From NCBI GenBank assembly GCA_020627525.1, contig JAHDGP010000001.1, positions 1 to 43,280 on the forward strand: a stretch of DNA of 43,280 nt, given 5' to 3'. A program made the translations under genes and the position numbers. This DNA is from Bacteroidota bacterium. GTDB taxonomy: Bacteria > Bacteroidota > Bacteroidia > Chitinophagales > UBA2359. Of the stretch, positions 24,004 to 43,280 are shown in pieces; positions within the stretch are counted from its first letter, which is position 1; each line of letters begins with the position of its first letter. Under the pieces are notes generated by a model. The model did not search any database. It saw nothing but the letters and a program-made list of their open reading frames with translations, and was not told the DNA's origin.

Positions 24004-24031
24004 TTCTTTGTTTTTTAGGTGTTTTAAAGAT

Positions 24032-24787
24032 TTAGTTTTTAACAAATTTGCCAACAGTTAAGCCTTGCTCATTGCTGTAAATCTTTATAAAATAGGTGCC
24101 TGAAACAAATTGATTGAGGTCCAAACTCAGTTTGTTTTCTCCTACAATAGCTTTTGTTTTTTGTGAAATGATTGATTTGCCAGAAACATCAAATACTTCA
24201 AAGTCTACTTGCTGATATTCTTTTGAATTGAATGATATATTGATAAAATTATTGGCAGGAACAGGAGCTATATTTAGAATATTTATATCATTATTAACAT
24301 TAAAATTCAAAATGCCTGTGCCATCGTCTTGAAAGTCTAAAACTTGATTGTCAGAATATTTAAAGTTGTCCAGTGGAGCGCCGTGTAAATCTTTCCAACC
24401 TGTAAACTGAATTACTTCATCATTTTCAATATACTCAATTTCTTCATTGGAAGACTCTAAAAACAATTTTAATGAAAACAACTCCGATTCGTTCATTCCT
24501 TCGTCAGATTCTGTGGTATGAAATTCATCACCATAAATAGCCAAATTACAAAACATCTTTCCATTTTCAGCTGCTATCAAACTAGAAGCGCCTACACATT
24601 TTCCATTAGAATCAAAGGCTGCAATTAAATCTTCAGATGTTAAATTAGATTCTCCAAATTTTATTTCAGCAATAATTGAAGCTGAAGTATTATTCGGATA
24701 AAATGTAAAAGGACCGAGCGATACCTGAGAACATAAAGAGCTTGAAATTAAAGTAAATAGGAGTATAGGTGTAAGTATTTTTTTCAT
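24032..24787 (-). CDS. T9SS C-terminal-sorting-domain (Por_Secre_tail) secreted protein
   Basis: 251-aa ORF with signal peptide 'MKKILTPILLFTLISSSLCSQ'. The C-terminal ~80 aa 'ILNIAPVPANNFINISF...VFDVSGKSI...LSLDLNQFVSGTYFIKIYSNEQGLTVGKFVKN' match the type-A T9SS sorting domain pattern. Confidence 0.8.
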   Translation of the reverse strand: MKKILTPILLFTLISSSLCSQVSLGPFTFYPNNTSASIIAEIKFGESNLTSEDLIAAFDSNGKCVGASSLIAAENGKMFCNLAIYGDEFHTTESDEGMNESELFSLKLFLESSNEEIEYIENDEVIQFTGWKDLHGAPLDNFKYSDNQVLDFQDDGTGILNFNVNNDINILNIAPVPANNFINISFNSKEYQQVDFEVFDVSGKSIISQKTKAIVGENKLSLDLNQFVSGTYFIKIYSNEQGLTVGKFVKN

Positions 24788-26776: not shown

Positions 26777-29700
26777 CTACTTTGTGTTTAATCCTTTTCC
26801 AAATAATTTACTCATTGTTCTATCTGTTAAAAAGTACATTACAGGTACAATGACAAGTGTAAGGAAGGTGGCGAAGATTAATCCAAAAATTACTGTCCAC
26901 GCCATTGGACCCCAAAACATAACATTATCACCACCAATGTAAATGGCAGGGTTGAAATCTCTCAGCAATCCTGTAAAGTCAATATTGAAACCAATAGCCA
27001 ATGGAATCAATCCAAGTACAGTGGTAATTGCAGTCAATAAAACAGGTCTTAAACGGGTTGCACCAGCTTCTACTATCGAATCAACAACCTCTTGTTTTGA
27101 AAGTCTTTTTTGATCTGATAATGCAAGTCCAGCACGTTTTCTCTGTCTGACAAGGTTGGTGTAATCTATCAATACAATTGCATTGTTTACAACAATTCCC
27201 GCTAATGAAATAATACCAATCCCCGTCATAATAACGATAAAGTCCATTTTGAAAATAGAGTATCCCAAGAAAACCCCTATAGTACTAAATACAACCGATG
27301 CAACAATAATTGCTGGCATCGCAATAGAGTTAAACTGTGATACGATGATTAAAAATATCAGTGCAACTGCAATTAAAAGAGCTGTCATTAGAAAGGCTGT
27401 AGACTCTTCTTGTTCTTCTTGCTCTCCAGTAAATTGAACCATATACCCTTCTGGCAATTGGTAATCTGCCATTAAATCTCTATAAGCAGAAACAATTTTA
27501 GTTCCGTTGAATCCTTCCAAAACATTAGAAGACAAAGAAACAACCCTTTGTAGGTCTTTTCTTTTTACTGATCCAATTGTTGACTCGTAATCGGAACTGG
27601 CTACGGCAGAAACAGGTATTTGAACTACTTGTCCATTGCTTTGATTTTTGAAAGTTATCTTTTGATTTAAAATAGTTGATAAATTATGACGATTCTCTTC
27701 ATTGAACCTCAGGTTAATTGGATATTCGTCTTCCCCTTGCTTAAAGGTTGAAACCTCTTTTCCGAAAACAGCCGTTCTTATATCGCTTGCAATCATACCT
27801 GTAGAGAGTCCGTATCTTCTCGCTTTGTCTCGGTCAATATTTACCAGCAACTCAGGCTTGTCTTTTTCTAGATTTACCTTTAATTCTTCGACTCCTTCAA
27901 CTCCAGAGTTTTCAAGATAAGTTTTTATATCTTCTGTCAATGCAATTAAGGTTTCATAGTCTTCTCCAATAACGTCTACATTTACAGGTGGTCCTGTAGG
28001 TGGTCCGTTTTGCTCTTTTTCTACAGTAATACTTACACCAGCAAAGTCTGACAAATTTTTTCTAATTTTCTCAAGAATTTCATTTGTTGATTGGTTGTTT
28101 CTTTTTTCAAATTCATAGAAAAAGATAGATACTCTTGACTTGTTTGGAGTGGCACTGGTGTTAAATCCTTCCATCGGATTACCAGCTCCTTTTCCAACAT
28201 TTGCCAAAACAGCTTCAACCATATATTCATAAGGCTCCAAGGTTTCAATTACGATGTCCTCTATTTCCTTGGTTGTTCTATTTGTTTTTTCAATATCAGT
28301 TCCTATGGGATATTCATTGTAAATAAAAATTTGATTGGGCTCACCATCTGGAAATAAAACAACATTGGGTTCACTGGATACGAATAGAGCTAAAGAACCA
28401 ATCAACATTAGGACAGTTGCAAACATAAATAAAAACGGTAAGAAACTACTCAATGCTAGACGGAGGAAACCTTTGTAAACTTTTTCAAGTACAGGCATTG
28501 CTGTTTCTAAAAATATTTTTGACAACGGTCTGAAAATGAACGTTTGAACAAGTATCAATACAGCTACAATAGCAGCTAAGCTTCCAATAATTCGCAATCC
28601 GCCACTATTGTTTTTAAATCCAAAGAAATAGGCAACGGTAGCAATAACTGCAAAGAATAAAAATGATAAGAATATTTTGGTGTAATTATTTTTTGCGTTT
28701 GGATCTTCCAAAACCATAAATCTAGAGGTTAAAACCGGATTGACAACCAATGCAACAAATAGAGATGATGCTAAAACAATTATCAATGTCATAGGTAGAA
28801 ACTTCATAAACTCACCCATAATTCCTTCCCAAAACAATAGAGGGACAAAGGCTGCTAAGGTCGTTGCTGTAGAAGCAATAATCGGCATCGCTACTTCACC
28901 TGCTCCCTCCTTCGCTGCACGGTACGGATCATACCCTTCTTGCATAAGTCGATAAATATTTTCGACAATAACAATACCATTGTCAACCAACATTCCCAAA
29001 GCCAGAATAAGGGAGAATAAAACCATCATATTTAAGGTTGCTCCCATAAATTGAAGGATCATAAACCCCATCAACATAGACAGTGGAATAGCGATTCCAA
29101 CGAATAATGCATTTCTCAATCCAAGGAAAAATAGTAAAACCAATACCACCAGAATTACCCCGGAAATGATACTGTTTTCCAGATTGCTAACCATACTCCT
29201 CGTTTGCTTAGAAGTATCATTAATCAGTTGTACTTTCAACTCATCAGGAAAGATTTCTTTTTGAGATTTGGCAATCAACTCTTTTACTTTATCTGAAGCT
29301 TTCAATAAATTAGTACCGCTACGCTTAATGATATTCAGCGTTACAACAGGTTGTTTATTTCCTCTGGAATAACTGCTGCTTTCCTCATAATCAAATTTTA
29401 CAGAAGCGATATCTTTCAGGTAAACAATGTTCCCTTTGCTGCTTTTTACGATAACATTTTGAAGTTCATTTACATCTTTGAATTCTCCGACCACTCTGAC
29501 ATTTCTCCTAATACCATCAGCCAAAACATCCCCACCCGAAATGGTGAGGTTTTCATTGGCAACTGCTCCTTCAATATCTCGCATCGTAACTTGGCGAGCT
29601 TCCAACTTATGTACATCTATATTGATGGATACTTCTTTGTCCTGAACGCCCGAAATATCTACCCTTGAAATTTCACTAAACTTTTCAATTTCGTCTTGCA

Positions 29701-30199
29701 AATATTCAGCGTAATCTTTAAGAACATCAATATCATTATAGCCTGATAATAAAATATTCATAACAGGCAAATTGCCAAAATCCAACTTTAAAGCATTGGG
29801 TTCAGCAGGCAAATCATTTGGCAGTTCAGCCTTGTCGATGGCGTCTTTTACCTCTTGCAACGCTTTGTCTGGATCGACATTTAAGTCAAACTTAACACTG
29901 ATACTAGAAAAATCCTGAATAGAGGTAGAACTAACCTCGTCAATCCCAGTAATCGTATTTATCTCTTTTTCTATAGGACGAGTAATGAGGTTTTCAATAT
30001 CCAATGGCGAATTTCCTGGATAGGCAGACCCCACATAAATTTCCGGTATTTTTATTTCTGGAAAATTTTCTTTAGGCATAGAGGTATAAGAAATCAAGCC
30101 CATTGTAATAATCAAAAATACTATCACAAATACACTCGTTCCATTGTCAATTGCCAACGTACTTAAAAAAAACTCTCTTACCGTACTTTTCTTTTCCAT
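26777..30199 (-). CDS. RND efflux transporter permease (AcrB/HAE1-like)
   Basis: 1140-aa ORF with 12-TM topology and two large periplasmic loops. The sequence is typical of the family throughout, for example 'FFLSTLAIDNGTSVFVIV' and 'GMLVDNGIVIVENI'. Confidence 0.93.
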   Translation of the reverse strand: MEKKSTVREFFLSTLAIDNGTSVFVIVFLIITMGLISYTSMPKENFPEIKIPEIYVGSAYPGNSPLDIENLITRPIEKEINTITGIDEVSSTSIQDFSSISVKFDLNVDPDKALQEVKDAIDKAELPNDLPAEPNALKLDFGNLPVMNILLSGYNDIDVLKDYAEYLQDEIEKFSEISRVDISGVQDKEVSINIDVHKLEARQVTMRDIEGAVANENLTISGGDVLADGIRRNVRVVGEFKDVNELQNVIVKSSKGNIVYLKDIASVKFDYEESSSYSRGNKQPVVTLNIIKRSGTNLLKASDKVKELIAKSQKEIFPDELKVQLINDTSKQTRSMVSNLENSIISGVILVVLVLLFFLGLRNALFVGIAIPLSMLMGFMILQFMGATLNMMVLFSLILALGMLVDNGIVIVENIYRLMQEGYDPYRAAKEGAGEVAMPIIASTATTLAAFVPLLFWEGIMGEFMKFLPMTLIIVLASSLFVALVVNPVLTSRFMVLEDPNAKNNYTKIFLSFLFFAVIATVAYFFGFKNNSGGLRIIGSLAAIVAVLILVQTFIFRPLSKIFLETAMPVLEKVYKGFLRLALSSFLPFLFMFATVLMLIGSLALFVSSEPNVVLFPDGEPNQIFIYNEYPIGTDIEKTNRTTKEIEDIVIETLEPYEYMVEAVLANVGKGAGNPMEGFNTSATPNKSRVSIFFYEFEKRNNQSTNEILEKIRKNLSDFAGVSITVEKEQNGPPTGPPVNVDVIGEDYETLIALTEDIKTYLENSGVEGVEELKVNLEKDKPELLVNIDRDKARRYGLSTGMIASDIRTAVFGKEVSTFKQGEDEYPINLRFNEENRHNLSTILNQKITFKNQSNGQVVQIPVSAVASSDYESTIGSVKRKDLQRVVSLSSNVLEGFNGTKIVSAYRDLMADYQLPEGYMVQFTGEQEEQEESTAFLMTALLIAVALIFLIIVSQFNSIAMPAIIVASVVFSTIGVFLGYSIFKMDFIVIMTGIGIISLAGIVVNNAIVLIDYTNLVRQRKRAGLALSDQKRLSKQEVVDSIVEAGATRLRPVLLTAITTVLGLIPLAIGFNIDFTGLLRDFNPAIYIGGDNVMFWGPMAWTVIFGLIFATFLTLVIVPVMYFLTDRTMSKLFGKGLNTK

Positions 30200-30249
30200 A
30201 CCCTTTTATAAATTACAATTTGTATTTCTATTTCTATTTTTTCCTTTCT

Positions 30250-30344
30250 CACCAGCTCACTGAGCTCACAAAGGTCACTGAGCGAAGCCGAAGTGAACGG
30301 AGCCGAAGTGAGCCGAAGCACGGTTGCTGAGCGGAGTCGAAGCA
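30250..30344. repeat. Degenerate GC-rich repeat block filling the mfp-rnd intercistronic spacer
   Basis: It contains GCTCACTGAG (30255-30264), GGTCACTGAGCGAAGCCGAAGTGAAC and CCGAAGTGAGC (30303-30313). These are the same cores as the array at 31555-31761. The block abuts the mfp stop at 30345-30347. Confidence 0.7.
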
Positions 30345-31502
30345 CTACCTAATCCTCAAAAGTGAACCATCCTTAACCAAATTGCCGCCTTCCGCAACCA
30401 ATTCTTCGTCGCCAGTCAAACCCGCTTCTATAAGCGTTTGTCCCTCAAAAGATTTTCCTGTTTTTATTATTTGTTTTTTTGCTCGTTTACCCGAAGGAGT
30501 TTGTTCTATAACAAAAACAAACTCTTCACCAGCATTTCTTCTTACAATATTCGTTGGGACAACAATAGCATCTTCAGCCTTAAACTGAGAAATTTTTATC
30601 ATCGTCTGCAAATTAGGTTTTAAAACCCTGTCTTTATTCGAAATATTTGCCTCAATTTTAAATGTCCTGTTATTTGGATTAATGAGCGTTCCTATTTTAG
30701 TAATTTTTGCCTCACGATCCATATTCAAAGAAGGAATGTGAACATTTATTTTTGACCCTTTTTTAATTACTGGTAAATAAGTCTCAGCAACATCAGCAAC
30801 AACTTGAACATTTGCAGTACTGATGATATTTATAATCGGAACACCAGGCGATGCAAGTTCTCCTTGACGCAAATTAACTCGTTCAACAACACCACCCGCA
30901 GGAGCATAAACATTGGCTTTTGAAATTTGAGTGCCCAAAGTTTCAATACTCTTCTCTAAAGATTCAACATTGTTTTTAGCTGTTAAAAATTCGATCTCCG
31001 ATCCTATATTTTGCTTCCATAAACGCTCACGTCTTTCAAAAACATCTCTTGCCAATTTCAATTTCAATTCTAATTCCCCTTTGCTTTTAAGCGTAGACTC
31101 ATTGTCAATTGTGGCAACCAAACTGCCTCTGCCAATAGCGTCTCCTTCTTTGTAATTCATTGAAGTTATGGTTCCTGGAATTTCTGAAGTAGCAGTATAA
31201 TTTCCTTTCGTTTCAATGTTTCCAACGATTTCAATAAATTCCTCAAAGTCTTTTTTCTCCACTTTCGTAGTAGTAATGTTCAAGGCTTTTTCTTTCTTTA
31301 CCGACGAAGGGTCGAGCTCTGCAATTTCAGCTTCCAACTTTTCAATCTCTGCTTTCAACTCAGCAACCTTGTCTTTGTTTTTTGTAAGCGCTTCACGTTT
31401 TCCTTCAAGCGTACTGGTGTCAATCTCAGTATCATTCGAACAAGACCCCAATCCTATCAAAATAAAACCGATTAATGTTAATATATAAATGCTTCTTTTC
31501 AT
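30345..31502 (-). CDS. RND efflux periplasmic adaptor (membrane fusion protein), lipoprotein
   Basis: 385-aa ORF with lipobox 'LIGLGSCS'. It has a coiled-coil hairpin ('ELKAEIEKLEAEIAEL') and HlyD/barrel-sandwich layout. Confidence 0.9.
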   Translation of the reverse strand: MKRSIYILTLIGFILIGLGSCSNDTEIDTSTLEGKREALTKNKDKVAELKAEIEKLEAEIAELDPSSVKKEKALNITTTKVEKKDFEEFIEIVGNIETKGNYTATSEIPGTITSMNYKEGDAIGRGSLVATIDNESTLKSKGELELKLKLARDVFERRERLWKQNIGSEIEFLTAKNNVESLEKSIETLGTQISKANVYAPAGGVVERVNLRQGELASPGVPIINIISTANVQVVADVAETYLPVIKKGSKINVHIPSLNMDREAKITKIGTLINPNNRTFKIEANISNKDRVLKPNLQTMIKISQFKAEDAIVVPTNIVRRNAGEEFVFVIEQTPSGKRAKKQIIKTGKSFEGQTLIEAGLTGDEELVAEGGNLVKDGSLLRIR

Positions 31503-31554
31503 CCTAATAATTTATTCCAGTATTTTATATTTTTTTTCATAACTAAAAATTCAT

Positions 31555-31761
31555 CACTCCCGCTCCCGAAGTGAGCACTCCCGCTCCCGAAGTAAGCCCT
31601 CCGCTCACTGAGGTACTCGAAGTGAGCACTCCCGCTCCCGAAGTGAGCCCTCCGCTCACTGAGGTACTCGAAGTAAGCCCTCCGCTCACTGAGGTACTCG
31701 AAGTAAGCCCTCCCGCTCACTGAGGTACTCGAAGTGAGCTCACCAAGGATCTCGAAGTGAG
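31555..31761. repeat. Mosaic tandem repeat array (8 units of 21-31 nt) filling the tolC-mfp intercistronic spacer
   Basis: Unit A is CACTCCCGCTCCCGAAGT(G/A)AG (21 nt) at 31555, 31576 and 31627. Unit B is CCCTCC(C)GCTCACTGAGGTACTCGAAGT(G/A)AG (30-31 nt) at 31597, 31648, 31678 and 31708. A terminal 23-nt variant lies at 31739. Each B unit carries the inverted pair GCTCACT/AGTGAGC. Confidence 0.9.
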
Positions 31762-31764
31762 CAC

Positions 31765-33135
31765 TCAAAACACTCCGTTTGCTTTATCCAAGTTCGTTTT
31801 TGCAATTAGCAAATTGTATAGAGCCTGGAGAAACAATCCTTGAGTTTGATACAGTTCCGATTCGGCTGCATTTACTTCAAGGCTAGATCCTAAACCTTCT
31901 TTGTATTTAATAAGCGAAGTGTTGTATATCTTTTCTGCTAGAGAAATATTTTCTCTTTGACTTTTTAACTGTTCTAGTGAACTTAAGTATTCAACTCTTG
32001 TCTTATTGAGTTCTAAGTTGAAAGATTGCTCCAAAATAGATTTGTTGTATTTTAGTTGAATGCCTTTTAATTTTTTCTGTTCAATATTTGCAGAACCTTT
32101 AAATCCACTAAAGATTGGAACCTTTAACTGAAGTCCAACCAAAAAAGTAGGGAACCAGAAATTGGTGTCAGCAATTTTGCTCAATGAATTTTGCTGCCAA
32201 TTTTGCTGATAAGAAGCAAATGCTGACAAAGATGGACGCCCTTGCCATTTTACATTTTTTATATCCAATTCATTCAATAGTTCCTGTTTTTCCAGTAATC
32301 TATATTCAACTTTTGTTCTAGGGTTAAATTTGCTAGAATCATCAATTATAACATTTTCTATAAGTGGTAAAATTTTTTCCAAACCATCTGACAAACCAAT
32401 GTCTTGTTTTTCAGTATAGCCCATTTGGAATTTCAAAGCTTCTTTTGCCATATACAATGATCTTTTAGACGTTCCAATTTGAATATTTAAATTCGACAAT
32501 GATAAATTTAAACGATCAACATCTAAAAGCTCAATAAAGCCATTCTTATATAATTGAGTCGTTTCAAATAAAACTTTCTCAACATTGCTTTTGTTTTTTT
32601 CGAGAATCTCAATTTGTGCTTTGTTAAGCAATACACCGTAATAAGCTTGTGAAACAGAAAATTTAACTTGCTCTACAGATTGGGTTATTTCTTCATTTCT
32701 CAATGTTGCATACTCTTTTGCCGCTTCTAATGCAGTTAAGTAAGAACCACTGAAAACCAATTGGCTGGCATCCAAAGAAAACCCTACTGTATTATCGGTA
32801 CCAAACTGTAATTCTATGTATTGATCTTCAGGTGCATTAGGATCTCCAAATTGAGTAGCTGGAACCAGGTTAGTGGGTAATTGAAAGAAATGGTTGAAAT
32901 CTAAATTAGCATTAATTTGAGGCAAACCTGTTGCCCTGATTTCTTTCATTTGCTGTTCAGCAATTTGCGTATCTGTTTTTTTTATTTTTATATTGATATT
33001 GTTATTGAGCGCATAAGCCTTTGCCTCCTCTAAACTGAAATATCTCAAAGAATCTTTTTCACTTTGCGCTAAACAAAAGTGTTGCATTAAAATTAAAATC
33101 AATGCATATATATATGTATTCTTATTCATGATCAT
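31765..33135 (-). CDS. TolC-family outer membrane efflux protein
   Basis: 456-aa ORF with signal peptide 'IYALILILMQHFCLAQ'. It shows the two-repeat alpha/beta architecture typical of OEP family proteins and is the first gene of the efflux operon. Confidence 0.85.
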   Translation of the reverse strand: MIMNKNTYIYALILILMQHFCLAQSEKDSLRYFSLEEAKAYALNNNINIKIKKTDTQIAEQQMKEIRATGLPQINANLDFNHFFQLPTNLVPATQFGDPNAPEDQYIELQFGTDNTVGFSLDASQLVFSGSYLTALEAAKEYATLRNEEITQSVEQVKFSVSQAYYGVLLNKAQIEILEKNKSNVEKVLFETTQLYKNGFIELLDVDRLNLSLSNLNIQIGTSKRSLYMAKEALKFQMGYTEKQDIGLSDGLEKILPLIENVIIDDSSKFNPRTKVEYRLLEKQELLNELDIKNVKWQGRPSLSAFASYQQNWQQNSLSKIADTNFWFPTFLVGLQLKVPIFSGFKGSANIEQKKLKGIQLKYNKSILEQSFNLELNKTRVEYLSSLEQLKSQRENISLAEKIYNTSLIKYKEGLGSSLEVNAAESELYQTQGLFLQALYNLLIAKTNLDKANGVF

Positions 33136-33284
33136 TACTTAGGAATGCTGATAAAATGAATTTTCAATTTTGCTTGGTTCATTTTTGTTTCTTACAGTAC
33201 AGAAAACATAGACCCACCAAGGCAAAGATGAGGTTTTCTGACAAAGCTAGAAGCAAAAAGCAACAGTTAAATTTGTAAAGTTAT

Positions 33285-33896
33285 TCAATCATCATCCTTA
33301 ATTATTTTAGTAAAATATTTAACTCCCTTTTCTGTCGAAATTCCCAAAACATGATATTTAATGAACTCAACATATACATCTGCTATATTGAATAAGTCCG
33401 GAGGGAATAACACATTATTGGTAATTTGCTCCAATTGACTCACGTACATCTTAGTAATAATATCAACATTTAAGCCACTTCTGTATAAGCCTTCAGAAAT
33501 TCCTAATTCTAGATTCTGTTTTATATATGCTGTAATGAATTCATCATGGTGATTTTCAATAATCGTCCAGCAGTTTTTGTAATACTTTTTTAAATCAAAT
33601 ACTGCTGATGGATTCATTTTTCTCAATATTGAATGATTAATTTTTGCTACCTCAACAAGCAAATCTATTGCATTAAATGATTTGTTTTCATAAATATCAT
33701 TGATTTGACTGGTTGATTTTGCAATATGGTCATTAATGGTTTGTCTTACTAAATCTTCTTTGTTTTCTACATATTGATAAATCGTTTTTTTTGACATTCC
33801 TAGTTCTTTGGATAAATCATCCATTGAAATACTCTTGATTCCATATCTAAAGAATAACTCCTTAGCAGTTGATATGATTTTATCTGATTCTTTCAT
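33285..33896 (-). CDS. TetR/AcrR-family transcriptional regulator
   Basis: 203-aa ORF with an N-terminal HTH 'GIKSISMDDLSKELGMSKKTIYQYVENKEDL'. It lies upstream of, and co-directional with, tolC-mfp-rnd. Confidence 0.9.
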   Translation of the reverse strand: MKESDKIISTAKELFFRYGIKSISMDDLSKELGMSKKTIYQYVENKEDLVRQTINDHIAKSTSQINDIYENKSFNAIDLLVEVAKINHSILRKMNPSAVFDLKKYYKNCWTIIENHHDEFITAYIKQNLELGISEGLYRSGLNVDIITKMYVSQLEQITNNVLFPPDLFNIADVYVEFIKYHVLGISTEKGVKYFTKIIKDDD

Positions 33897-34445: not shown

Positions 34446-37400
34446 ATGAGAAATACACAATTACGAAAATTTTGGTTCTTTGTGGGACTCTTGTTTACAC
34501 TTGCTCAAGTTGGATACGCACAATGCGGACCAGGGCAAGACAACACAAGACCTACCTTTGCAGAGCCATATTTTTCGTTAGATGTTTATGTAGAATGTGA
34601 GGAGGATGTGGTGATTACTCCCCCAACGCCAATGGATGATTGTACAACAAACCCTACCTTAACTATAGTTGAAGACATTACAACTACTGGATCTTGTCCC
34701 AATCAATTTATTAGAATAATTAATTATCAAGCGGAAGATGAAGCAGGAAATACAGCTTTATTCAGCTTGAGTATTCAAGTTTTGGATTTGGTTCCACCTG
34801 TTTTTGATCAATCTGCAAATGAATTGAATCAAACTGTAAGTTGTGAAGATGATATTGTTATAGTGGAGCCAACTGCTACAGATAACTGCAATATGCAGGA
34901 TGTTGCTATTTTCTCAACAGAAAATGAGCAAATTGGGGATTGTCCATTCAATTTTAATAGAACTGTTACATACAGAGCAATTGATGAATGTGATAACTTT
35001 TCTTTTTATTCAATTGTTTACACTGTTCAAGACAATGATGCGCCAGTCTTTGATTTAGCAGCAGGAGCTTTAGATCAAACGGTCAGTTGTGTTTCTGAAA
35101 TAGAAGCTTGGGAAATACCAACGGCAACTGATAATTGTGGAGATGCACAAGTGCAAATAGCCTCAGATGAAACTGTTGAAGGTGCTTGTGAGAATAGCTT
35201 TACCAGAACCATTGTTTATGAAGCAACAGATTTATGTGGAAATGTGGCTCAGTATCAAGCAGTAATAACTGTAAATGATGATACAGCACCAGTATTTACA
35301 ACAAATCCTGGTGAGCTTGATTTTGCATTTAATTGTTCTGATAATGTGGAAATTGACATCCCTCTTCCTGTTGCTACTGATAATTGTGAAGGAAATGTCT
35401 TAGTAAAAATTATTGGAGATGCATCTATAGACGGAGATTGTGCAGGCAGTTCGATAAGAACAATTACCTATGAAGCGGTTGATGCTTGTGGAAATCAAAG
35501 CGAACCTTTCACAGTTGAAATAACAATTGGTGATACAAGCCCTCCAGTTTGGGTAACTGAAATAAATGCTTTAAATATTGAATATGCTTGCGATGAAGTT
35601 GCGGATGTAATACCAGTTCCAGAAGCATCGGATTTATGTGGAAATGCTATAGTAGAACTTACTGGCAGTAATTCTATTGAAATGGGTTGTACCGGAAATT
35701 CGCAATTAGTATATATATATACCGCTACAGATGAATGTGGCAATGTTTCTGATGCTGAATTTATTGTAACTATTACAATTACTGATAATGAAGCACCTAC
35801 TTTTGTTGAAGAAGCTGGAGCATTGGATGTAGCACTTTCTTGTAATGAAGTAGCTGCTTTTACATTGCCAGTTCCTACTGCATCTGATAATTGTAGTGAA
35901 ACAGAAGTTACTTTAATAAATGATGAAACAACAACAAGTGCAACTTGCGCTGCAAATTATACAAGAGTTTTAACTTACCAAGTGGCAGACCTTTGTGGAA
36001 ATGAAGGGGAGACCTACGATGTCACAATTACTGTTTCTGATAATGAAGCTCCTAACTTAACTGGTTTGTTTGACGAAAATGTTTCTGCTGGTTGTGGCGA
36101 AACACCAGAGGTACCTATTGTTCAAGTAAATGACAATTGTGATTCAGATGTAGAGTTGGTCTATTCTGCTGATACGACTGAAGGAAGCTGTGCTGGTGGA
36201 TACATTATAACGAGAACTTGGTCAGCTACAGATGATTGTGGAAACACTGCTGAAAGAACGCAGGTAGTTGCTGTAGAAGATAACGTAAAGCCAGTTATTA
36301 CAGGAGTACCTGCAAGTACGAATGCAAGTTGTGACTTGATTCCAGAAGCAGGTGAACTACAGGTTTTTGATAACTGTGATGATGCTCCTGAAATAATATT
36401 TAACGAAAATATAGTAGATGGCAATTGCCCAAACAATTACACATTAAGAAGAGTTTGGCAAGTCATTGATGATTGTGATAATGAAACAATTGCAATTCAA
36501 GAAATAACAGTAAGAGATAATGAAGGTCCTGTTTTTGACAATTTCCCTGCAAATACAGAAGTGAGTTGTGGAACTGTTCCAGCAGCGGCTGAAGTAACAG
36601 CGATTGATAACTGTGGTGGTGATATTACATATGATTTTGAAGAAGCATACAATTATGATGAATGTCCTTACACATTGACAAGAACTTGGACTGCAACAGA
36701 TGCTTGTGGAAATGAAACTTCAAGATCTCAAATTATTACTTTAACTGACGAAGAAGGACCAACTTTTAACAATGTGCCTTTAGCAGCAAATGTTGACTGT
36801 AATGGAATACCTACTGCTGGTCAGCCAACTGTCTCAGACAATTGTGATGATAATGTGCAAATGCAAATGACAGAAGAAACGGAAGGAGATGGTTGCCCTT
36901 ATACAATAATTAGAACTTGGACAGCAACTGACCTTTGTGGGAATACAAACTCCGTTTCTCAAACAATTACTGTTTCAGATAATGCAGGACCAGAAATTCA
37001 AGATGTGCCTGCTGATATAACTATAAACTGTTCTGATCTAGAAGCAGCTCCAGAATTAATAGCAATAGATAATTGTGCTGGAGAATTGACGACAGAATTT
37101 GCTGAAATTACGAATGGTGAAGGTTGTGACCTTACTATAATAAGAACTTGGACAGCAACCGATCTTTGTGGAAATATTTCTACAGCTTCTCAAACAATTT
37201 CAGTTTCTGATGACGAAGACCCTACTTTCGATGTAGTTTTTGACAATCCATATGAAGTAGCTTGTGGAGGAACAATTCCTGAAATGCCAATAGTAAATGC
37301 ATTTGACAATTGTGGAGAAGTGACTGTGGAATTTGATGAGTCAAATAATTTTGGAATTTGTGAAGGAGATGAAACAATTTTCCGTAACTGGAGAGCAACA

Positions 37401-40400
37401 GATGCTTGTGGAAATGTAAATGTAATTCAACAAATAATAAAAATTGGAGATCAAAATGCTCCTGTGTTTACAGAAGGTGAAGGGGAGTTAGATGTAGCTA
37501 TTTGTGCGGGTGATATTGAAAACGTTCCAGCTCCAAATGTTACGGATGGATGTTCTGCTGTTGAATTGAATTTTAACGATGAAACATTTGACACAGATTG
37601 TGCGAGTCATCAATTAGTTGTAAGAACTTATACAGCAACAGATGCTTGTGATAATACAAGTACTTACATCCAAAACATAAATATTTACGGTGATATTACT
37701 GCTACAATATCCACAATAGATGGTAGCTGTGATGTTCAATTAAATACAGATTGTAATGGTTATTCTATCATTTGGTTTGATGATGCTGGAAATACTGGAA
37801 GTGGCAATTTATACAGTCCATTGGTTGAAACTACTGGTACAGTTACTTTTGCAGTTTCTAGAGCAAATGCACCAACAGATTGTAATGCTGAATCATTTGA
37901 ATACTCTTATGATTGTACCAATACTTGTCCACAAATAGTTTCTGCTTCAACAAGCGAGTTGCATATTTGTTCAGGTACTAGTTTTGGTCTAATTGCAGAT
38001 GTTATAAATGAAGATGGTGGTACTTTAACATGGTACGATGCTGCTGGAAATGTCATTGCTAATCCTAATGCTGTTTCTATGGAAAACAATACTTGTGAAT
38101 CAATGAAGTTGACATTTACAGCTGAGTATGTTTCTGTAAATGACAATTGTCCAACAGTGACAATGACTACAAATGTTATAACTATTTATCCAGAAATTTC
38201 TTACGAAGTTTCGAATAATGGATGTGAGATTGAAATAACAAATTTCTGTGACGGATTTTTTGTTAGTTGGGTAGATGATTATGGAAAACCTGGAAACGAA
38301 ACGAGCTATTCTGCGGAAGCAGGTGGTCAAGGAACAGTAACTTTTACTATCTTCAATACAGATGCTTCTCAAGCACCTTTACAATGTCAATTTGTGACAA
38401 TTAACGAAGATTTTGATTGTGGTGATTGTCCAACACTTTCTGATCCAACAATTAGTGAGGTGAGTATTTGTTCAGGTGACTTTATTTCTTTAGATATTAA
38501 TATAGTAAATGACAATGGTGGATCTCTTATGTGGTATGATAGCAATGATAACTTAGTACCAGATCCTTCTAAAATATTTTTAAATACAGAAAATTGTAAT
38601 GGAGAGAGTTTCGGCTTTTATGCTGCATATACTCCTTCAGGTGATTATTGTGATTTAGTGGTTTCTGACATAGCCACAGTAACCGTATATCCGCAGATTG
38701 AAGCAACCATCATTTCTGAAGGATGTACGGTTGCTTTGAACAACATTAATTTGTGTACTGGCGACTTTGAAATTTCTTGGTCAGATGATCAAGGCAATTC
38801 TGGAAATGGTCCTATTTATACAGCTGCAGGTGGTTCAACTGGCAACGTGACTTTTGTAATAACAAATACAGCAACGAATGTTCCCGACAATTGCGCAACA
38901 GCGACTTTCGTTTCGGCATATGCTTGTGCAACTTGTCCTGTAATAACTTTAGATGATGATGTAACTTCAGCTGTTTGTTATGGAGAGGCAATTCCACTTT
39001 CTGCAAGTGTTGAACCCAATGTTGGGGGGACTGTTCAATGGTACCACGAATCAGGTGTGTTGTTGAATGATTTGACTTTAGACGATTTGAATTATGATGT
39101 TTGTTCAGGTGCAGTATTGAACTACTATGCTGAATTTACTCCGACAAATACAGATTGTCCAGCGGTTCAAACAGAGATGGCTACAGTTACTATTTATCCA
39201 TCAATAGATGCAACTGCTGTTTCTAGTGGATGTCAAGTATCCTTAAATGACTACTGTGAGGACTTTACCGTAACTTGGGAAGACAGCAACGGAAATACAG
39301 GAACAGGAGATAGCTTTACTCAAACAAATGGTGAAAATGGTTCTGTAACATTTACAGTAACAAACCCTAACGGTTTAGATAACTGTAGTTCTGCTACATT
39401 TACAGCTACTTCAAACTGTAGTGCTTCTTGTCCGTATATTTATAATGTAGAGTGCAGCCCTCCTACAGTTTGTGATGGCGAACCTTTCTCATTAATAGTT
39501 GCAATTTCTAACCTTGACGGTGGAACGATTCAATGGTATGACGAAAATGATAATTTAATAATAAATACAAATGACATCGTTGTTGATGTGGATGAGTGTA
39601 ATGGTGGTTCTTTTGGATACTATGCAGTTTATACACCTGCAAATGCAAGTTGTGGAAGTGTAACTTCTGAGCTAGCTTACGTTACAGTTTTTCCAAATAT
39701 TACAGCTGAAGTTTCTGGTGAAAATTCTTGTAATATTGATTTGATAAATAATTGTGAAAACTTAAATGTCGAATGGGTTGATAATTTGGGTAATACAGGT
39801 ACAGGTAGCAGTTATACTGCAACATCTGGTTCTTCAGGTTCCGTAACATACACCGTTACGAATCCTGATCCAGATGTACCTGCATCCTGTTTAAATGAAG
39901 TGTTTGGTCCTTACGACTACGCTTGTGCAAATTGTCCACTAATATACAGTCCAACTTGTGATCCTTCTGTAATCTGTGAAGGAGAGTCATTTAGTCTAAA
40001 CGTTATTGTTACAGACCTTGATGGCGGTACAATACAATGGTATGATGAAAATGATAATTTAATTGAGGACATTAATGATATTGTTGTTGATATAAATGCT
40101 TGTGAAGGTGGTCAGTTTGGCTACTATGCAGTATATACTCCTGCAAACACAAACTGCGAAGTTGTAACAACAAATTTAGCATACGTTACAATCTATCCAA
40201 GTATTGTTGGAAATATTCAAAACAATGGATGTGAAATTTTATTAGAAGATAACTGTCCATCTTTCCCCGTAACTTGGGAAGACAGTGAAGGACATACAGG
40301 GGTAGGTACAACTTACTCGGCAGATGGTCCTGGAACTGGTTCAGTAACATTTACTATAAATAATTCAACAGCAGGCGTTCCTGATCATTGTCAAACAATG

Positions 40401-43280
40401 ACTTTCAATGCGGACTATGAATGCATTGCTTGTCCTGAAATATTTAATCCTGTTTGTGATCCTCCTGTTATTTGTGCAGGTGAAGCATTTAGCTTAAACG
40501 TTGGAATCAATAACTTAGATGGTGGTACACTTCAATGGTATGATCAAGCTGGTAATGCCATTACAAATTCACAAGATATTGTTTTAGATATTGATGCTTG
40601 TACTGGTGGTCAGTTTGGTTACTATGTGGAATATACTCCTGTAAATGCAAACTGTCCTACAGTTTCAACGGAGTTGACTTATGTTCAAGCTTATCCTCAA
40701 ATAAATGCAGAGGTTGTTGAAAACGGCTGTGCAATTGAATTGACTAATACTTGTCCAGATCACGTAATTAGTTGGACGGATGATTCAGGAAATGCTGGTA
40801 TTGGTGGAGATTATACTGGTATGCCTGGTACTGCTGGTGTTGTAACATACACTGTAACTAATCCTGTATCTGGTGTTCCAGGAGCTTGCTTGAGCAATAC
40901 TTACGAGGCAAACTACGATTGCCCTGTTTGCCCGGAAATAGCAAATGCAGCTTGTAGCCCTTCTAATATTTGTGAAGGAGAGTCATTCAGCTTGGCTGTT
41001 TCAATTTCAAACTTGGATGGTGGTACCGTTCAATGGTATACGGAAGATGGAACACCAATTTACTCGACAAATGATATTGTTTTAGATATAAATGAATGTA
41101 CAGGTGGTCAGTTTGGCTACTATGTAGAATATACGCCTGCAAATGCAGAATGTCCTGTAGCTGTTTCTGAAACGGCATATGTGACTATTTATCCATCAAT
41201 AAATGCACAAATTGTTTCTGATGGATGTAATGTTTCTTTGGATGGATATTGTGCTGATTTTGACATTGCTTGGACTGATGATTTAGGAAACGCAGGAACA
41301 GGTGATGCATTCTCAGGAGCAAATGGCGAGAGTGGTTCTGTAACATTTACAGTTACCAATCCAAATGGAATGGAAGGCTGCGAATCAAATACATTTACAA
41401 CTGATTATGCTTGTATTGATTGCCCAACAATTTTCCAACCTGCTTGTAGTCCTCCAGTGATTTGTGAAGGAGAAGCATTTAGTTTGGTTGTTGGATTTAA
41501 CAACTTAGATGGTGGAACTTTACAATGGTACGATGAATCAGGAAATCCAATTACAAATACTGCTGATATAGTATTGGATTTGGATGTTTGTGAAGGTGGT
41601 ACCTTTGGTTACTATGTGGAATATACGCCAGGAAATACTGATTGTGCGACTGTTACAACAGAATTGACATATGTTACTGTATATCCTCAAATTACTGCGG
41701 ACGTTGTTACAAGCGATTGTCAGGTAACACTTGAAAACTATTGTGAAGATTTCAATATTGCTTGGTATGATGATTCTGGAAATACTGGAAATGGAGACAC
41801 TTTCCTAGGTGACGGTGGAACAGGAACAGTTACATTTAATGTAACCAATACTGGTGCGACAGGAAATTGTTTGAGTCAAACATTTACTTCAGGTTATAGT
41901 TGTGACGGAGTTGAATGCCCACAATTGGGAACGCCTTCTATTTCTTCAACTGATATTTGTTCTGGTGAATCAGTAACATTAACAGTTGAGTTAACAAATG
42001 GAAATGGTGGAACTTTAGCTTGGTTTGATCAAGCTGGAAACGAAGTTGATCCAACAGAATTAACTTTGACAAATACTTCTTGTGATACTGAAATTCATAA
42101 TTATTACGCTGCATATATTTCTGGAAATGCAAACTGCCCTGATATAAATACTGCTACGGTTTCTGTAAATGTTTATCCAGAAATTTCTTACGATATTGAG
42201 ACGGATGGATGTAATATTACCATCACAAATTACTGTGAAAACTTCTGGGTCAACTGGGTTGATTCAAATGGTAAACCAGGTGAAGGAAATGTATTTGTAG
42301 GAAATGCTGGTGAGTCAGGATTTGTAGACTTTACTATCTATAATCCAACAACTGGTCAAATTCCACTTAACTGTCAATATAATTTCTTCTCTGTTGATTA
42401 TACTTGTGGAGATTGTCCTAGTTTGACAAATCCAACAGCAACCCCAGCTTATGCTTGCGATGGTGAGACGGTATCATTAAACATTAATGTTGCAAATGAT
42501 GACGGCGGTTCATTGGTTTGGTATGATGCAGACAACAATGTAGTTACAGACCCAAGCAGTGTAGTTGTTTCAACTGCTACTTGTGGTGACGAGGTATTTG
42601 GATATTATGCAGTGTATACTCCTGCAAGTACTTCTTGTTCAGAGTTGACATCTGCTTCAACATATGTACACGTTTATCCAACAATAACAGCAACTCCAGT
42701 TGTGGAGGAATGTGAAGTTTATTTATCAAACTTAAACAACTGTGATGCATACGAAATTACTTGGTCTGATGATTTAGGAAATACTGGATCGGGTGATACC
42801 TATTTACCAGAAGAAGGCACAGCTGGAACAGTAACATTTGTTGTAACAAACAATACAGCTGGAACACCAGATGCCTGTGCTTCTGCTACATTTACAGCAA
42901 ACTTTGATTGTACGAAAGAAGTGATTTTTGATTTAGCATTACAAAAAACTTTGGCGGCTGGTCAAAATGCAGTTGTAAATGTTGGTGATCAAGTTACTTA
43001 TACAATCACAGTTTACAACCAAGGTCAAGCAACAACTCAGAACATAGTTGTTTCTGATTATATTCCAACTGGTTTAACTTTAAACGATTCAAATTGGAGT
43101 GGTACAGCAACAACAGTTACTACAACAGTTGCAGGTCCTATCTTGCCAAACAGTTCAACAACGGTTGATATTACATTTACTGTAACAGCAAACTTTGCTG
43201 GAACTATAAGAAATTATGCTGAAATCACTTCTGCCGAAGATGAAGATGGAAATCTACAAGGTGACATAGATTCAACTCCT
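34446..43280 (+). CDS. Giant secreted cell-surface repeat protein (adhesin-like), 5' partial; the ORF runs off the window end
   Basis: I translated the frame by eye from ATG 34446. It gives 2945 sense codons to base 43280 with no stop. The signal peptide is 'MRNTQLRKFWFFVGLLFTLAQVGYAQ'. Conserved Cys-containing repeat motifs stay in this frame throughout. The ORF is absent from the supplied track, presumably because it has no stop in the window. Confidence 0.9.
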   Translation, partial: MRNTQLRKFWFFVGLLFTLAQVGYAQCGPGQDNTRPTFAEPYFSLDVYVECEEDVVITPPTPMDDCTTNPTLTIVEDITTTGSCPNQFIRIINYQAEDEAGNTALFSLSIQVLDLVPPVFDQSANELNQTVSCEDDIVIVEPTATDNCNMQDVAIFSTENEQIGDCPFNFNRTVTYRAIDECDNFSFYSIVYTVQDNDAPVFDLAAGALDQTVSCVSEIEAWEIPTATDNCGDAQVQIASDETVEGACENSFTRTIVYEATDLCGNVAQYQAVITVNDDTAPVFTTNPGELDFAFNCSDNVEIDIPLPVATDNCEGNVLVKIIGDASIDGDCAGSSIRTITYEAVDACGNQSEPFTVEITIGDTSPPVWVTEINALNIEYACDEVADVIPVPEASDLCGNAIVELTGSNSIEMGCTGNSQLVYIYTATDECGNVSDAEFIVTITITDNEAPTFVEEAGALDVALSCNEVAAFTLPVPTASDNCSETEVTLINDETTTSATCAANYTRVLTYQVADLCGNEGETYDVTITVSDNEAPNLTGLFDENVSAGCGETPEVPIVQVNDNCDSDVELVYSADTTEGSCAGGYIITRTWSATDDCGNTAERTQVVAVEDNVKPVITGVPASTNASCDLIPEAGELQVFDNCDDAPEIIFNENIVDGNCPNNYTLRRVWQVIDDCDNETIAIQEITVRDNEGPVFDNFPANTEVSCGTVPAAAEVTAIDNCGGDITYDFEEAYNYDECPYTLTRTWTATDACGNETSRSQIITLTDEEGPTFNNVPLAANVDCNGIPTAGQPTVSDNCDDNVQMQMTEETEGDGCPYTIIRTWTATDLCGNTNSVSQTITVSDNAGPEIQDVPADITINCSDLEAAPELIAIDNCAGELTTEFAEITNGEGCDLTIIRTWTATDLCGNISTASQTISVSDDEDPTFDVVFDNPYEVACGGTIPEMPIVNAFDNCGEVTVEFDESNNFGICEGDETIFRNWRATDACGNVNVIQQIIKIGDQNAPVFTEGEGELDVAICAGDIENVPAPNVTDGCSAVELNFNDETFDTDCASHQLVVRTYTATDACDNTSTYIQNINIYGDITATISTIDGSCDVQLNTDCNGYSIIWFDDAGNTGSGNLYSPLVETTGTVTFAVSRANAPTDCNAESFEYSYDCTNTCPQIVSASTSELHICSGTSFGLIADVINEDGGTLTWYDAAGNVIANPNAVSMENNTCESMKLTFTAEYVSVNDNCPTVTMTTNVITIYPEISYEVSNNGCEIEITNFCDGFFVSWVDDYGKPGNETSYSAEAGGQGTVTFTIFNTDASQAPLQCQFVTINEDFDCGDCPTLSDPTISEVSICSGDFISLDINIVNDNGGSLMWYDSNDNLVPDPSKIFLNTENCNGESFGFYAAYTPSGDYCDLVVSDIATVTVYPQIEATIISEGCTVALNNINLCTGDFEISWSDDQGNSGNGPIYTAAGGSTGNVTFVITNTATNVPDNCATATFVSAYACATCPVITLDDDVTSAVCYGEAIPLSASVEPNVGGTVQWYHESGVLLNDLTLDDLNYDVCSGAVLNYYAEFTPTNTDCPAVQTEMATVTIYPSIDATAVSSGCQVSLNDYCEDFTVTWEDSNGNTGTGDSFTQTNGENGSVTFTVTNPNGLDNCSSATFTATSNCSASCPYIYNVECSPPTVCDGEPFSLIVAISNLDGGTIQWYDENDNLIINTNDIVVDVDECNGGSFGYYAVYTPANASCGSVTSELAYVTVFPNITAEVSGENSCNIDLINNCENLNVEWVDNLGNTGTGSSYTATSGSSGSVTYTVTNPDPDVPASCLNEVFGPYDYACANCPLIYSPTCDPSVICEGESFSLNVIVTDLDGGTIQWYDENDNLIEDINDIVVDINACEGGQFGYYAVYTPANTNCEVVTTNLAYVTIYPSIVGNIQNNGCEILLEDNCPSFPVTWEDSEGHTGVGTTYSADGPGTGSVTFTINNSTAGVPDHCQTMTFNADYECIACPEIFNPVCDPPVICAGEAFSLNVGINNLDGGTLQWYDQAGNAITNSQDIVLDIDACTGGQFGYYVEYTPVNANCPTVSTELTYVQAYPQINAEVVENGCAIELTNTCPDHVISWTDDSGNAGIGGDYTGMPGTAGVVTYTVTNPVSGVPGACLSNTYEANYDCPVCPEIANAACSPSNICEGESFSLAVSISNLDGGTVQWYTEDGTPIYSTNDIVLDINECTGGQFGYYVEYTPANAECPVAVSETAYVTIYPSINAQIVSDGCNVSLDGYCADFDIAWTDDLGNAGTGDAFSGANGESGSVTFTVTNPNGMEGCESNTFTTDYACIDCPTIFQPACSPPVICEGEAFSLVVGFNNLDGGTLQWYDESGNPITNTADIVLDLDVCEGGTFGYYVEYTPGNTDCATVTTELTYVTVYPQITADVVTSDCQVTLENYCEDFNIAWYDDSGNTGNGDTFLGDGGTGTVTFNVTNTGATGNCLSQTFTSGYSCDGVECPQLGTPSISSTDICSGESVTLTVELTNGNGGTLAWFDQAGNEVDPTELTLTNTSCDTEIHNYYAAYISGNANCPDINTATVSVNVYPEISYDIETDGCNITITNYCENFWVNWVDSNGKPGEGNVFVGNAGESGFVDFTIYNPTTGQIPLNCQYNFFSVDYTCGDCPSLTNPTATPAYACDGETVSLNINVANDDGGSLVWYDADNNVVTDPSSVVVSTATCGDEVFGYYAVYTPASTSCSELTSASTYVHVYPTITATPVVEECEVYLSNLNNCDAYEITWSDDLGNTGSGDTYLPEEGTAGTVTFVVTNNTAGTPDACASATFTANFDCTKEVIFDLALQKTLAAGQNAVVNVGDQVTYTITVYNQGQATTQNIVVSDYIPTGLTLNDSNWSGTATTVTTTVAGPILPNSSTTVDITFTVTANFAGTIRNYAEITSAEDEDGNLQGDIDSTP
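34539..37694 (+). repeat. 13 tandem ~81-aa four-Cys HYR-like modules (coding repeat)
   Basis: The period is ~240-250 nt. The module pattern is D..(A/P)P.F ... C ... P.A(T/S)DNC(G/D) ... C ... (R)T(W/Y)TA.D.CGN ... I.V.D. The D.CGN/D.CDN motif occurs 13 times, from 'AEDEAGN' near 34745 to 'ATDACDN' near 37640. Confidence 0.85.
37695..42911 (+). repeat. 10.5 tandem copies of a 164-169-aa bipartite Cys-rich module (coding repeat)
   Basis: In-frame unit starts are 37695, 38196, 38697, 39204, 39699, 40203, 40701, 41199, 41691, 42183 and 42684. The last unit is an A-half only. Each unit follows 'YP(E/Q/S/N/T)'. A-half example: 'GC.V.L...C..F.V.W.DD.GN.G.G..Y....G.VTF.V.N....C...F...Y.C'. B-half example: 'CP....P....IC.GE.FSL.....DGG..QWYD.......C.GG.FGYYA.YTP.N..C......YVT.YP'. 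Confidence 0.9.
42915..43280 (+). other. DUF11 / 'conserved repeat domain'-type beta-sandwich at the window edge (within the giant CDS)
   Basis: 'VVNVGDQVTYTITVYNQGQATTQNIVVSDYIPTGLTLND...TVDITFTVTAN..G.IRNYAEITSAEDEDGNLQGDIDSTP' matches the DUF11/TIGR01451 signature (Gd.vtYtitv.N.G...a.nv.v.D.iP.Gl) as I remember it. Confidence 0.6.

Follow-up and report, generated by a model that had tools for sequence, protein, structure and literature searches.

A giant predicted type IX-secreted protein of a Chitinophagales bacterium carries an array of alternating cysteine-rich PKD-like and Ig_7 domains

A giant open reading frame and its two-domain repeat

The DNA analysed here, referred to throughout as the window, comprises positions 1 to 43,280 (43,280 nucleotides) of contig JAHDGP010000001.1 in the GenBank assembly GCA_020627525.1, which derives from a Bacteroidota bacterium placed by GTDB in the Chitinophagales (UBA2359). 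On its forward strand a frame without stop codons runs from 34431 up to the edge of the window, over about 2950 codons, and from the Met at 34446 it defines a giant open reading frame (ORF, 34446–43280) of at least 2945 amino acids, the 3' end of which is cut by the window edge. Within this ORF, at 37686–42914, lies an array of Cys-rich repeats, the subject of this report, in which each unit consists of an A-half, belonging to a small sequence family of its own, and a B-half that is a divergent member of the Ig_7 family.

When the translation is cut after the motif [VIA][TQNHS][VIA][YF]P, ten boundaries delimit ten full units of 164–169 amino acids and one extra A-half, giving 10.5 copies in all. 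The initial annotation of this DNA, made by a model from the sequence alone, had arrived at the same copy number and unit length and placed the array at 37695–42911, within 10 bases of the measured limits; of the eleven exact motif boundaries that it counted, ten are exact, the array start being preceded by a degenerate 'NINIYG'. All units are on the forward strand. Unit 1 spans 37686–38192 (A at 37686–37922, B at 37923–38192) and is followed by unit 2 at 38193–38693 (A 38193–38423, B 38424–38693), unit 3 at 38694–39200 (A 38694–38930, B 38931–39200), unit 4 at 39201–39695 (A 39201–39425, B 39426–39695) and unit 5 at 39696–40199 (A 39696–39929, B 39930–40199). Then come unit 6 at 40200–40697 (A 40200–40427, B 40428–40697), unit 7 at 40698–41195 (A 40698–40925, B 40926–41195), unit 8 at 41196–41687 (A 41196–41417, B 41418–41687), unit 9 at 41688–42179 (A 41688–41912, B 41913–42179), unit 10 at 42180–42680 (A 42180–42410, B 42411–42680) and the terminal extra A-half, the eleventh A domain, at 42681–42914.

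The units are 27–44% identical to unit 1 and share 11 invariant columns. In the window copies the A-half is 74–79 residues long and contains four invariant Cys, and the B-half, of 89–90 residues, has four invariant Cys and a fifth in units 4–8 only, in agreement with the four conserved Cys in A and four to five in B that had been read from the sequence at the outset. The junctions are marked by a Pro that is invariant on both sides, in the 'CP' that opens B ('C..CP') and the 'YP' that closes it ('YVTVYP'). The fifth Cys occupies column 10 of B ('P.C.PP.IC.GE'; units 4–8, 39426–41687) and recurs in 17% of the B domains of the wider family. At the DNA level the array was not reported by Tandem Repeats Finder, because the copies have diverged too far, which indicates that the duplications are old.

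Domain families and structure models

No Pfam or NCBIfam model accounts for the A-half. Only noise was obtained from Pfam, with the 11 window copies as well as 81 diverse family members, and from NCBIfam, with the 81 family members, and profiles built from either 11 or 81 sequences found no sequence in the PDB. Modelled alone with AlphaFold2, for which the input alignment consisted of paralogous copies only, A is a complete domain, a predicted seven-strand β-sandwich with a mean pLDDT (predicted local distance difference test) of 90.5. The top matches of this model in a Foldseek search of the PDB are PKD domains, those of PrtV (4l9d), Epp (6aem) and ColG (4jrw, 4aqo and 2y72), with template modelling (TM) scores of 0.55–0.62, identities of 19–25%, a probability of ~1.0 and E ~0.03. 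At the sequence level, the A profile weakly detects canonical PKD arrays such as that of protein P0081, to which Pfam assigns PKD_4 at E 1e-61, and the alignment by hhalign of 230 A instances with the PKD repeats of P0081 is weakly positive (69%, P 4.4e-5, 35 columns), with 'W.D..G..G..Y...G.V.F.V.N' as its core; the control comparisons gave 9.9% for A against B, 5% for B against PKD and 0.1% for A against HYR_4C. Derivation of A from the neighbouring HYR_4C domains, which also have four Cys, was considered and rejected, with that 0.1% obtained when 40 HYR repeats were aligned with the A family, and no Pfam HYR_4C match on the A domains (11 from the window and 81 from the family).

In our reading, A is a very divergent, Cys-stapled offshoot of the PKD/Ig-like superfamily, a sequence family of its own and not a new fold. 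The model gives it the same seven-strand sandwich as PKD domains, and the PKD core 'W.FGDG ... G.Y.V.L.V.D' has an equivalent in 'W.DD.GNTG.G..Y...G.VTF.V.N'; the four invariant Cys, in contrast, do not belong to the PKD signature. Unlike the PKD domains, moreover, the A family is tiny: an exhaustive hidden Markov model (HMM) search of 1.84 billion representative proteins with the A profile returned 108 at E ≤1e-3, 68 of them at E ≤1e-10.

The B-half can be placed in a known family. When B-halves were scanned singly, six of the ten matched Pfam Ig_7 (PF19081, 'Ig-like domain CHU_C associated') along positions 3–84 of its 84. Two exceed the gathering cut-off of 27.3 bits, namely those of unit 9 (36.9 bits and the best E, 4.7e-9) and unit 3 (29.5 bits), and four lie at 22.5–26.8 bits (unit 6, 26.8; unit 1, 25.6; unit 4, 22.7; unit 5, 22.5); in the other four the single-domain scan did not detect Ig_7. 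By sequence, then, B is a divergent member of Ig_7. The tail 'GG.FGYY..YTP.N..C', which the initial annotation had been unable to place, falls inside these full-length matches and hence corresponds to the last strands of the Ig_7 domain. As for the original suggestion that B resembles Ig-like or SprB repeats, the first part is borne out and the second is not, the SprB repeat (PF13573) being unlisted at E ≤1 for the whole region and at E ≤10 for single A- or B-halves. The description of the whole module as undescribed is sustained for A, at the level of sequence families, and fails for B.

Like the Ig_7 arrays of Bacteroidota CHU_C (type-B) proteins of type IX secretion systems (T9SS), the B-halves retain 'C.G...L' at the beginning and '...C......V.V.P' at the close, and orthologues of the window protein also terminate in CHU_C. 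They differ from these arrays in having an additional pair of conserved Cys (C2 and C58), in the fifth Cys of some units, and in not forming a homotypic tandem, as they alternate strictly with another type of domain.

Scans of longer sequences behave differently. Neither the whole-region nor the whole-protein hmmscan lists Ig_7, and both return instead a summed match to hGDE_N (PF14699), at 54 bits for the whole region, against a cut-off of 22.1; single-domain scans give the reverse. We rejected hGDE_N as spurious, since its score accumulates from weak matches that fall on the C-terminal strands of B and the one single domain tabulated reaches 19.4 bits. Automatic annotation of proteins of this kind is therefore likely to be misleading, reporting hGDE_N and missing Ig_7.

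An A-B-A segment, with unit 8 as the first sequence, was modelled as three consecutive all-β domains (pLDDT 90.5) with only ~5 non-strand residues between domains, which supports the bipartite arrangement proposed in the initial annotation. Bacterial matches in the corresponding fold search include three-domain stretches from the stem of GhpA, a giant T9SS substrate considered further below (9fly and 9flw, E 1e-5 to 2e-5, TMq 0.38–0.49 with 0.49 for 9flw, identity 17–18%). Human Ig/FN3 (immunoglobulin and fibronectin type III) arrays score similarly; because of this, and because there is no sequence relation, the likeness to GhpA extends only to the level of a tandem Ig-like array.

The models also suggest how the Cys may be paired. 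In A, C11 and C19 flank a predicted strand at residues 12–16, and C62 and C73 flank another at 64–72. The strands A' and G of the PKD/Ig topology run parallel to each other. Since the two Cys that flank one strand cannot bond to each other and A' and G are parallel, the disulfides of A would be C11–C62 and C19–C73. The same reasoning leads to C2–C58 and C16–C76 in B, one at each pole of the domain, C16–C76 being what we take to be the usual Ig_7 pair. In both families Cys are almost never lost, and an analysis of co-loss was uninformative on pairing.

Relatives, orthologues and secretion context

Proteins of the A family are nearly all between 1000 and 6300 amino acids long, and the profile of the 11 window A-halves reaches 1329 bits over 20 matched stretches on one of them, the 4856-residue orthologue described below, which places the repeat well outside anything that chance would produce. 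The strict alternation of A and B noted at first is conserved in most relatives (BABABA...), and the A spacing of 165–175 residues is held even where the narrow B model misses, a diverged Cys-containing domain of ~90 residues lying between. Over 300 instances each of the four A Cys is 99% conserved; in 138 instances of B the values are 99% for C16 and C58, 92% for C76 and 80% for C2, and where C76 or C2 is missing the Cys has moved by one or a few residues. The clusters are tiny and mostly metagenomic, and the sole name bearing an organism in the two clusters looked up is 'Ig-like domain-containing protein [Chitinophagales bacterium]'. Neither the A profile nor a query of two units gave a match in a word-indexed protein search, a result that, given the 108 relatives from the exhaustive HMM search, reflects a failure of the prefilter and not absence; low-complexity-like words rich in T, N, G and S probably swamp it. 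A search for related loci with a three-sequence A alignment found nothing.

With the whole protein as query, two loci were retrieved from metagenome-assembled genomes of Chitinophagales, L001 and L002, encoding proteins of 5187 and 4856 amino acids, respectively, at 54–56% identity. Their order of domains is 12 A and 11 B, DUF11 domains, 7–9 B-A units, Big_9/Cadherin_5 and CHU_C, so that the window, with 11 A and 10 B before DUF11, has one unit fewer. For most of window units 1–10 the best match is the orthologue unit of the same number, and from this position-by-position correspondence it follows that the array predates the split between the window protein and its orthologues and was not homogenised by concerted evolution. 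On the basis of the orthologue lengths and the shared upstream genes, the complete protein is probably a type-B T9SS cargo of ~4900–5200 amino acids.

Read by eye, the N-terminus of the window protein resembles a Sec signal peptide, with a basic n-region followed by a hydrophobic core and, before a Gln, 'GYA'; the putative peptide, MRNTQLRKFWFFVGLLFTLAQVGYA, is encoded at 34446–34520 on the forward strand, and cleavage would occur before the Gln of the QC that follows it. Between it and the A-B array, at 34539–37685 on the same strand, are ~13 copies of an HYR-like domain with four Cys, for which the Pfam scan reports HYR_4C (PF23237) at E 1.4e-73 in 12 stretches, covering residues up to ~1080, and jackhmmer counts 13 copies each for the window protein and its two orthologues. 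At the other end the array is interrupted by a DUF11 domain at 42930–43274, again on the forward strand (Pfam PF01345, E 1.5e-18; TIGR01451), after which the window ends; the domain maps of the orthologues resume past DUF11 with more B-A units.

Evidence for the secretion route comes from the orthologues and the family. The CHU_C domain was found in the L002 protein (P0001) and in P0002, P0018 and P0040 at E 1e-13 to 1e-19, the orthologue value being E 5.7e-19, and an ad hoc model of the C-terminal domain, built from four CHU_C tails verified with Pfam, matches 42 of the 68 strong members of the A family. Directly downstream of the giant gene in both L001 and L002 is a gene of the PorP/SprF family (PF11751, E 1.9e-64 and 3.9e-66), and a CHU_C protein with such a gene directly downstream is a documented hallmark of type-B T9SS substrates (PMC12618676). 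The window itself encodes a Por_Secre_tail protein (24032–24787), from which it follows that the host organism has a T9SS. Directly downstream of this 251-residue protein, whose sorting domain is of type A, and overlapping it by 23 bases, is a 694-residue ORF on the minus strand (within 21970–24787) with 3.6% Cys, 4.2% Lys+Arg and no Pfam match.

The genes that lie upstream of the giant ORF in the window, L001 and L002 alike encode TetR, OEP, HlyD and AcrB proteins of an efflux system (26777–33896 in the window, minus strand). A functional link of these TetR and resistance-nodulation-division efflux genes to the giant gene was considered and set aside, as the connection consists of conserved synteny only and no other is evident. 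Between the OEP and HlyD genes is a tandem DNA repeat (31555–31739; periods of 21, 30 and 51 bp, 86–95% matches), which sits in an 89-codon minus-strand ORF reading repeated 'AYFEYLSERR / AHFGSGS'.

The composition of the array is extreme. Lys and Arg make up 6 of its 1744 residues (0.34%), compared to 4–15% in the other 24 ORFs of the window, and 0.6–0.7% across the family (300 A and 138 B instances from the relatives P0001–P0068). The sequon for O-glycosylation in Bacteroidota is D-(S/T)-(A/I/L/V/M/T). It does not occur in the array, where shuffled sequences predict 10.1 ± 3.0 occurrences, and is depleted throughout the family (25 observed against 130 ± 11 expected in A, 12 against 63 ± 7 in B), whereas the other window ORFs contain 22 against 21.8 expected. 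The scarcity of Lys, Arg and sequons may mean that glycosylation and trypsin-like proteases are avoided.

A candidate stalk for a surface fibre

We think it probable that the array forms a stalk, stapled by disulfides, in a surface fibre or adhesin of the SprB or GhpA kind that is secreted by the T9SS. The giant protein would be exported by the Sec pathway and then by the T9SS, with the array as the first segment of its stalk. Each ~165-residue unit would contribute two small β-sandwiches placed head to tail, a four-Cys PKD-like A and a four-Cys Ig_7 B, each with two disulfides, one near each pole, and the invariant Pro of the junctions may hold the chain extended. Clamped by Cys close to both termini, the domains would be shielded from unfolding under tension. 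That neighbouring domains should be dissimilar is an established principle by which tandem-domain proteins limit misfolding between domains, and the alternation of two unrelated families would keep neighbours dissimilar in this way. With 21 domains of ~4 nm, the result could be a stiff spacer, resistant to force and proteases, of ~80–90 nm that keeps the HYR-like region of the N-terminus at a distance from the cell. The long rigid fibre suggested in the initial annotation is plausible by analogy with GhpA and in view of the short linkers.

Several observations weigh against this reading. Sequence support for relatedness of A to PKD is weak: the PKD models PF00801 and PF18911 are significant on none of 92 A domains, their best values being E 0.02–0.05 for one of the 11 window copies and E 0.069 for one of the 81 family members. 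The pTM (predicted TM score) of the A-B-A model, 0.64, makes the inter-domain geometry only moderately confident, and the Cys pairing is deduced from the predicted strand order and the PKD/Ig topology, with units 4–8 carrying an odd number of Cys (nine). The window ends inside the giant gene, so that the C-terminal domain and the PorP partner are those expected from the orthologues. Finally, the many conserved aromatic residues could equally form a binding surface.

This last point leads to the alternative that the A-B units serve mainly for multivalent binding, to a polysaccharide or to a prey or host surface, comparable to the PKD-like domains of chitinases and collagenases, and that the array itself is adhesive. 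The aromatic residues concerned are W26 and Y/F39 of A and those of 'QWYD' and 'FGYYA.Y' in B, a surface glycan-binding protein (7kv7) is among the top fold matches of A, and the cargo of type-B T9SS consists of known or predicted adhesins (PMC12618676). In the models, however, these aromatics are located in predicted strands and look like core residues, the units are no more than 27–44% identical with conservation centred on Cys, Gly and Pro at structural positions, and Pfam scans of the region and of the A and B domains matched no carbohydrate-binding family. We therefore regard a primarily adhesive array as unlikely.

A more specific alternative takes GhpA as its model. GhpA of Aureispira sp. 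CCB-QB1 is a T9SS substrate of 5898 amino acids with 52 Ig-like repeats and a straight stem of 240 nm, with disulfides between neighbouring domains, probable glycan densities on all Ig-like domains and a PorP homologue encoded downstream, and establishes that Ig-like arrays can form straight, rigid T9SS appendages (bioRxiv 10.1101/2024.01.29.577165). By analogy, parallel protomers of the window protein would assemble into the hollow, rigid stem of a 'grappling hook' for prey capture (ixotrophy), the A-B array being that stem. The A-B-A model does match 9fly and 9flw at the E-values given above, the relatives come from metagenome-assembled genomes of Chitinophagales, and both proteins are giant T9SS substrates with a PorP homologue next to the gene. 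Yet the A and B profiles found no GhpA chain (9fl*) at E up to 10, the 17–18% identity in the fold alignments comes with similar scores for human arrays, the PorP gene of L001 is not followed by any recognised PorE-like gene, and the O-glycosylation sequon is nearly absent from the array, in contrast to the probable glycans on all Ig-like domains of GhpA. Assembly of this particular kind seems to us quite improbable. As for the possibility that the periodicity is an artefact of chance or composition, or that the frame is a decaying pseudogene, the negative DNA-level repeat detection is the sole point in its favour, and it is refuted by a frame open over 2950 codons, full-length orthologues that match unit by unit, independent proteins that score between hundreds of bits and over 1300 with the A profile, and confident structure models.

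For a disulfide-stapled stalk, GhpA is nevertheless the best structural precedent. The two have in common a giant Sec/T9SS substrate, a downstream PorP gene (in the orthologue loci), a long run of Ig-like domains with disulfides (predicted ones in the array) and short linkers, and a similar superposition of three-domain folds. They differ in that GhpA lacks detectable sequence homology to the A or B domains and appears heavily glycosylated whereas the array is depleted in the sequon; the heptamer, the hook module and the PorE partner are features of GhpA, and the array is known here from its sequence and from models of the monomer. SprB of Flavobacterium johnsoniae, with its partner SprF, is likewise a giant, repetitive protein of the cell surface that has a type-B C-terminal domain and, as in the orthologues, a PorP/SprF-family gene directly downstream, but the Pfam SprB repeat was not detected in the window protein, which is composed of HYR_4C, A-B, DUF11 and, from its orthologues, Big_9/Cadherin_5 domains. 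A parallel outside the Bacteroidota is provided by the G5-E repeats of SasG and Aap in staphylococci, in which two different small β domains alternate head to tail in a long rigid surface rod; their domains have unrelated folds and lack disulfides, and the proteins are anchored by sortase in Gram-positive cells.

More speculatively, the array might represent a distinct class of T9SS appendage in uncultured Chitinophagales, a 'bare', protease-proof rod with two disulfides per domain and nearly free of Lys, Arg and sequons, perhaps assembled laterally like GhpA and making contact with prey or surfaces, a proposal that we consider rather unlikely.

Bacteroidota genomes commonly encode giant T9SS surface proteins, most of whose length is unannotated; to our knowledge, GhpA is the only one among them with a high-resolution structure. 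For the window protein and its relatives, a two-domain unit is now cleanly defined and both halves are assigned to folds. The A domain is a small, well-delimited, four-Cys PKD-like family that is not modelled in Pfam or NCBIfam and could be added to them. The array constitutes a new domain variant within a familiar class, the Ig-like repeat stalks of giant bacterial adhesins, and extends the known set of bacterial adhesins with Ig-like repeats incrementally, leaving the general picture unchanged. The extreme composition of the family, in which Lys+Arg account for ~0.3–0.7% of residues and Cys at fixed positions for 5%, and the sequon is depleted five-fold, may bear on how such a fibre survives outside the cell.

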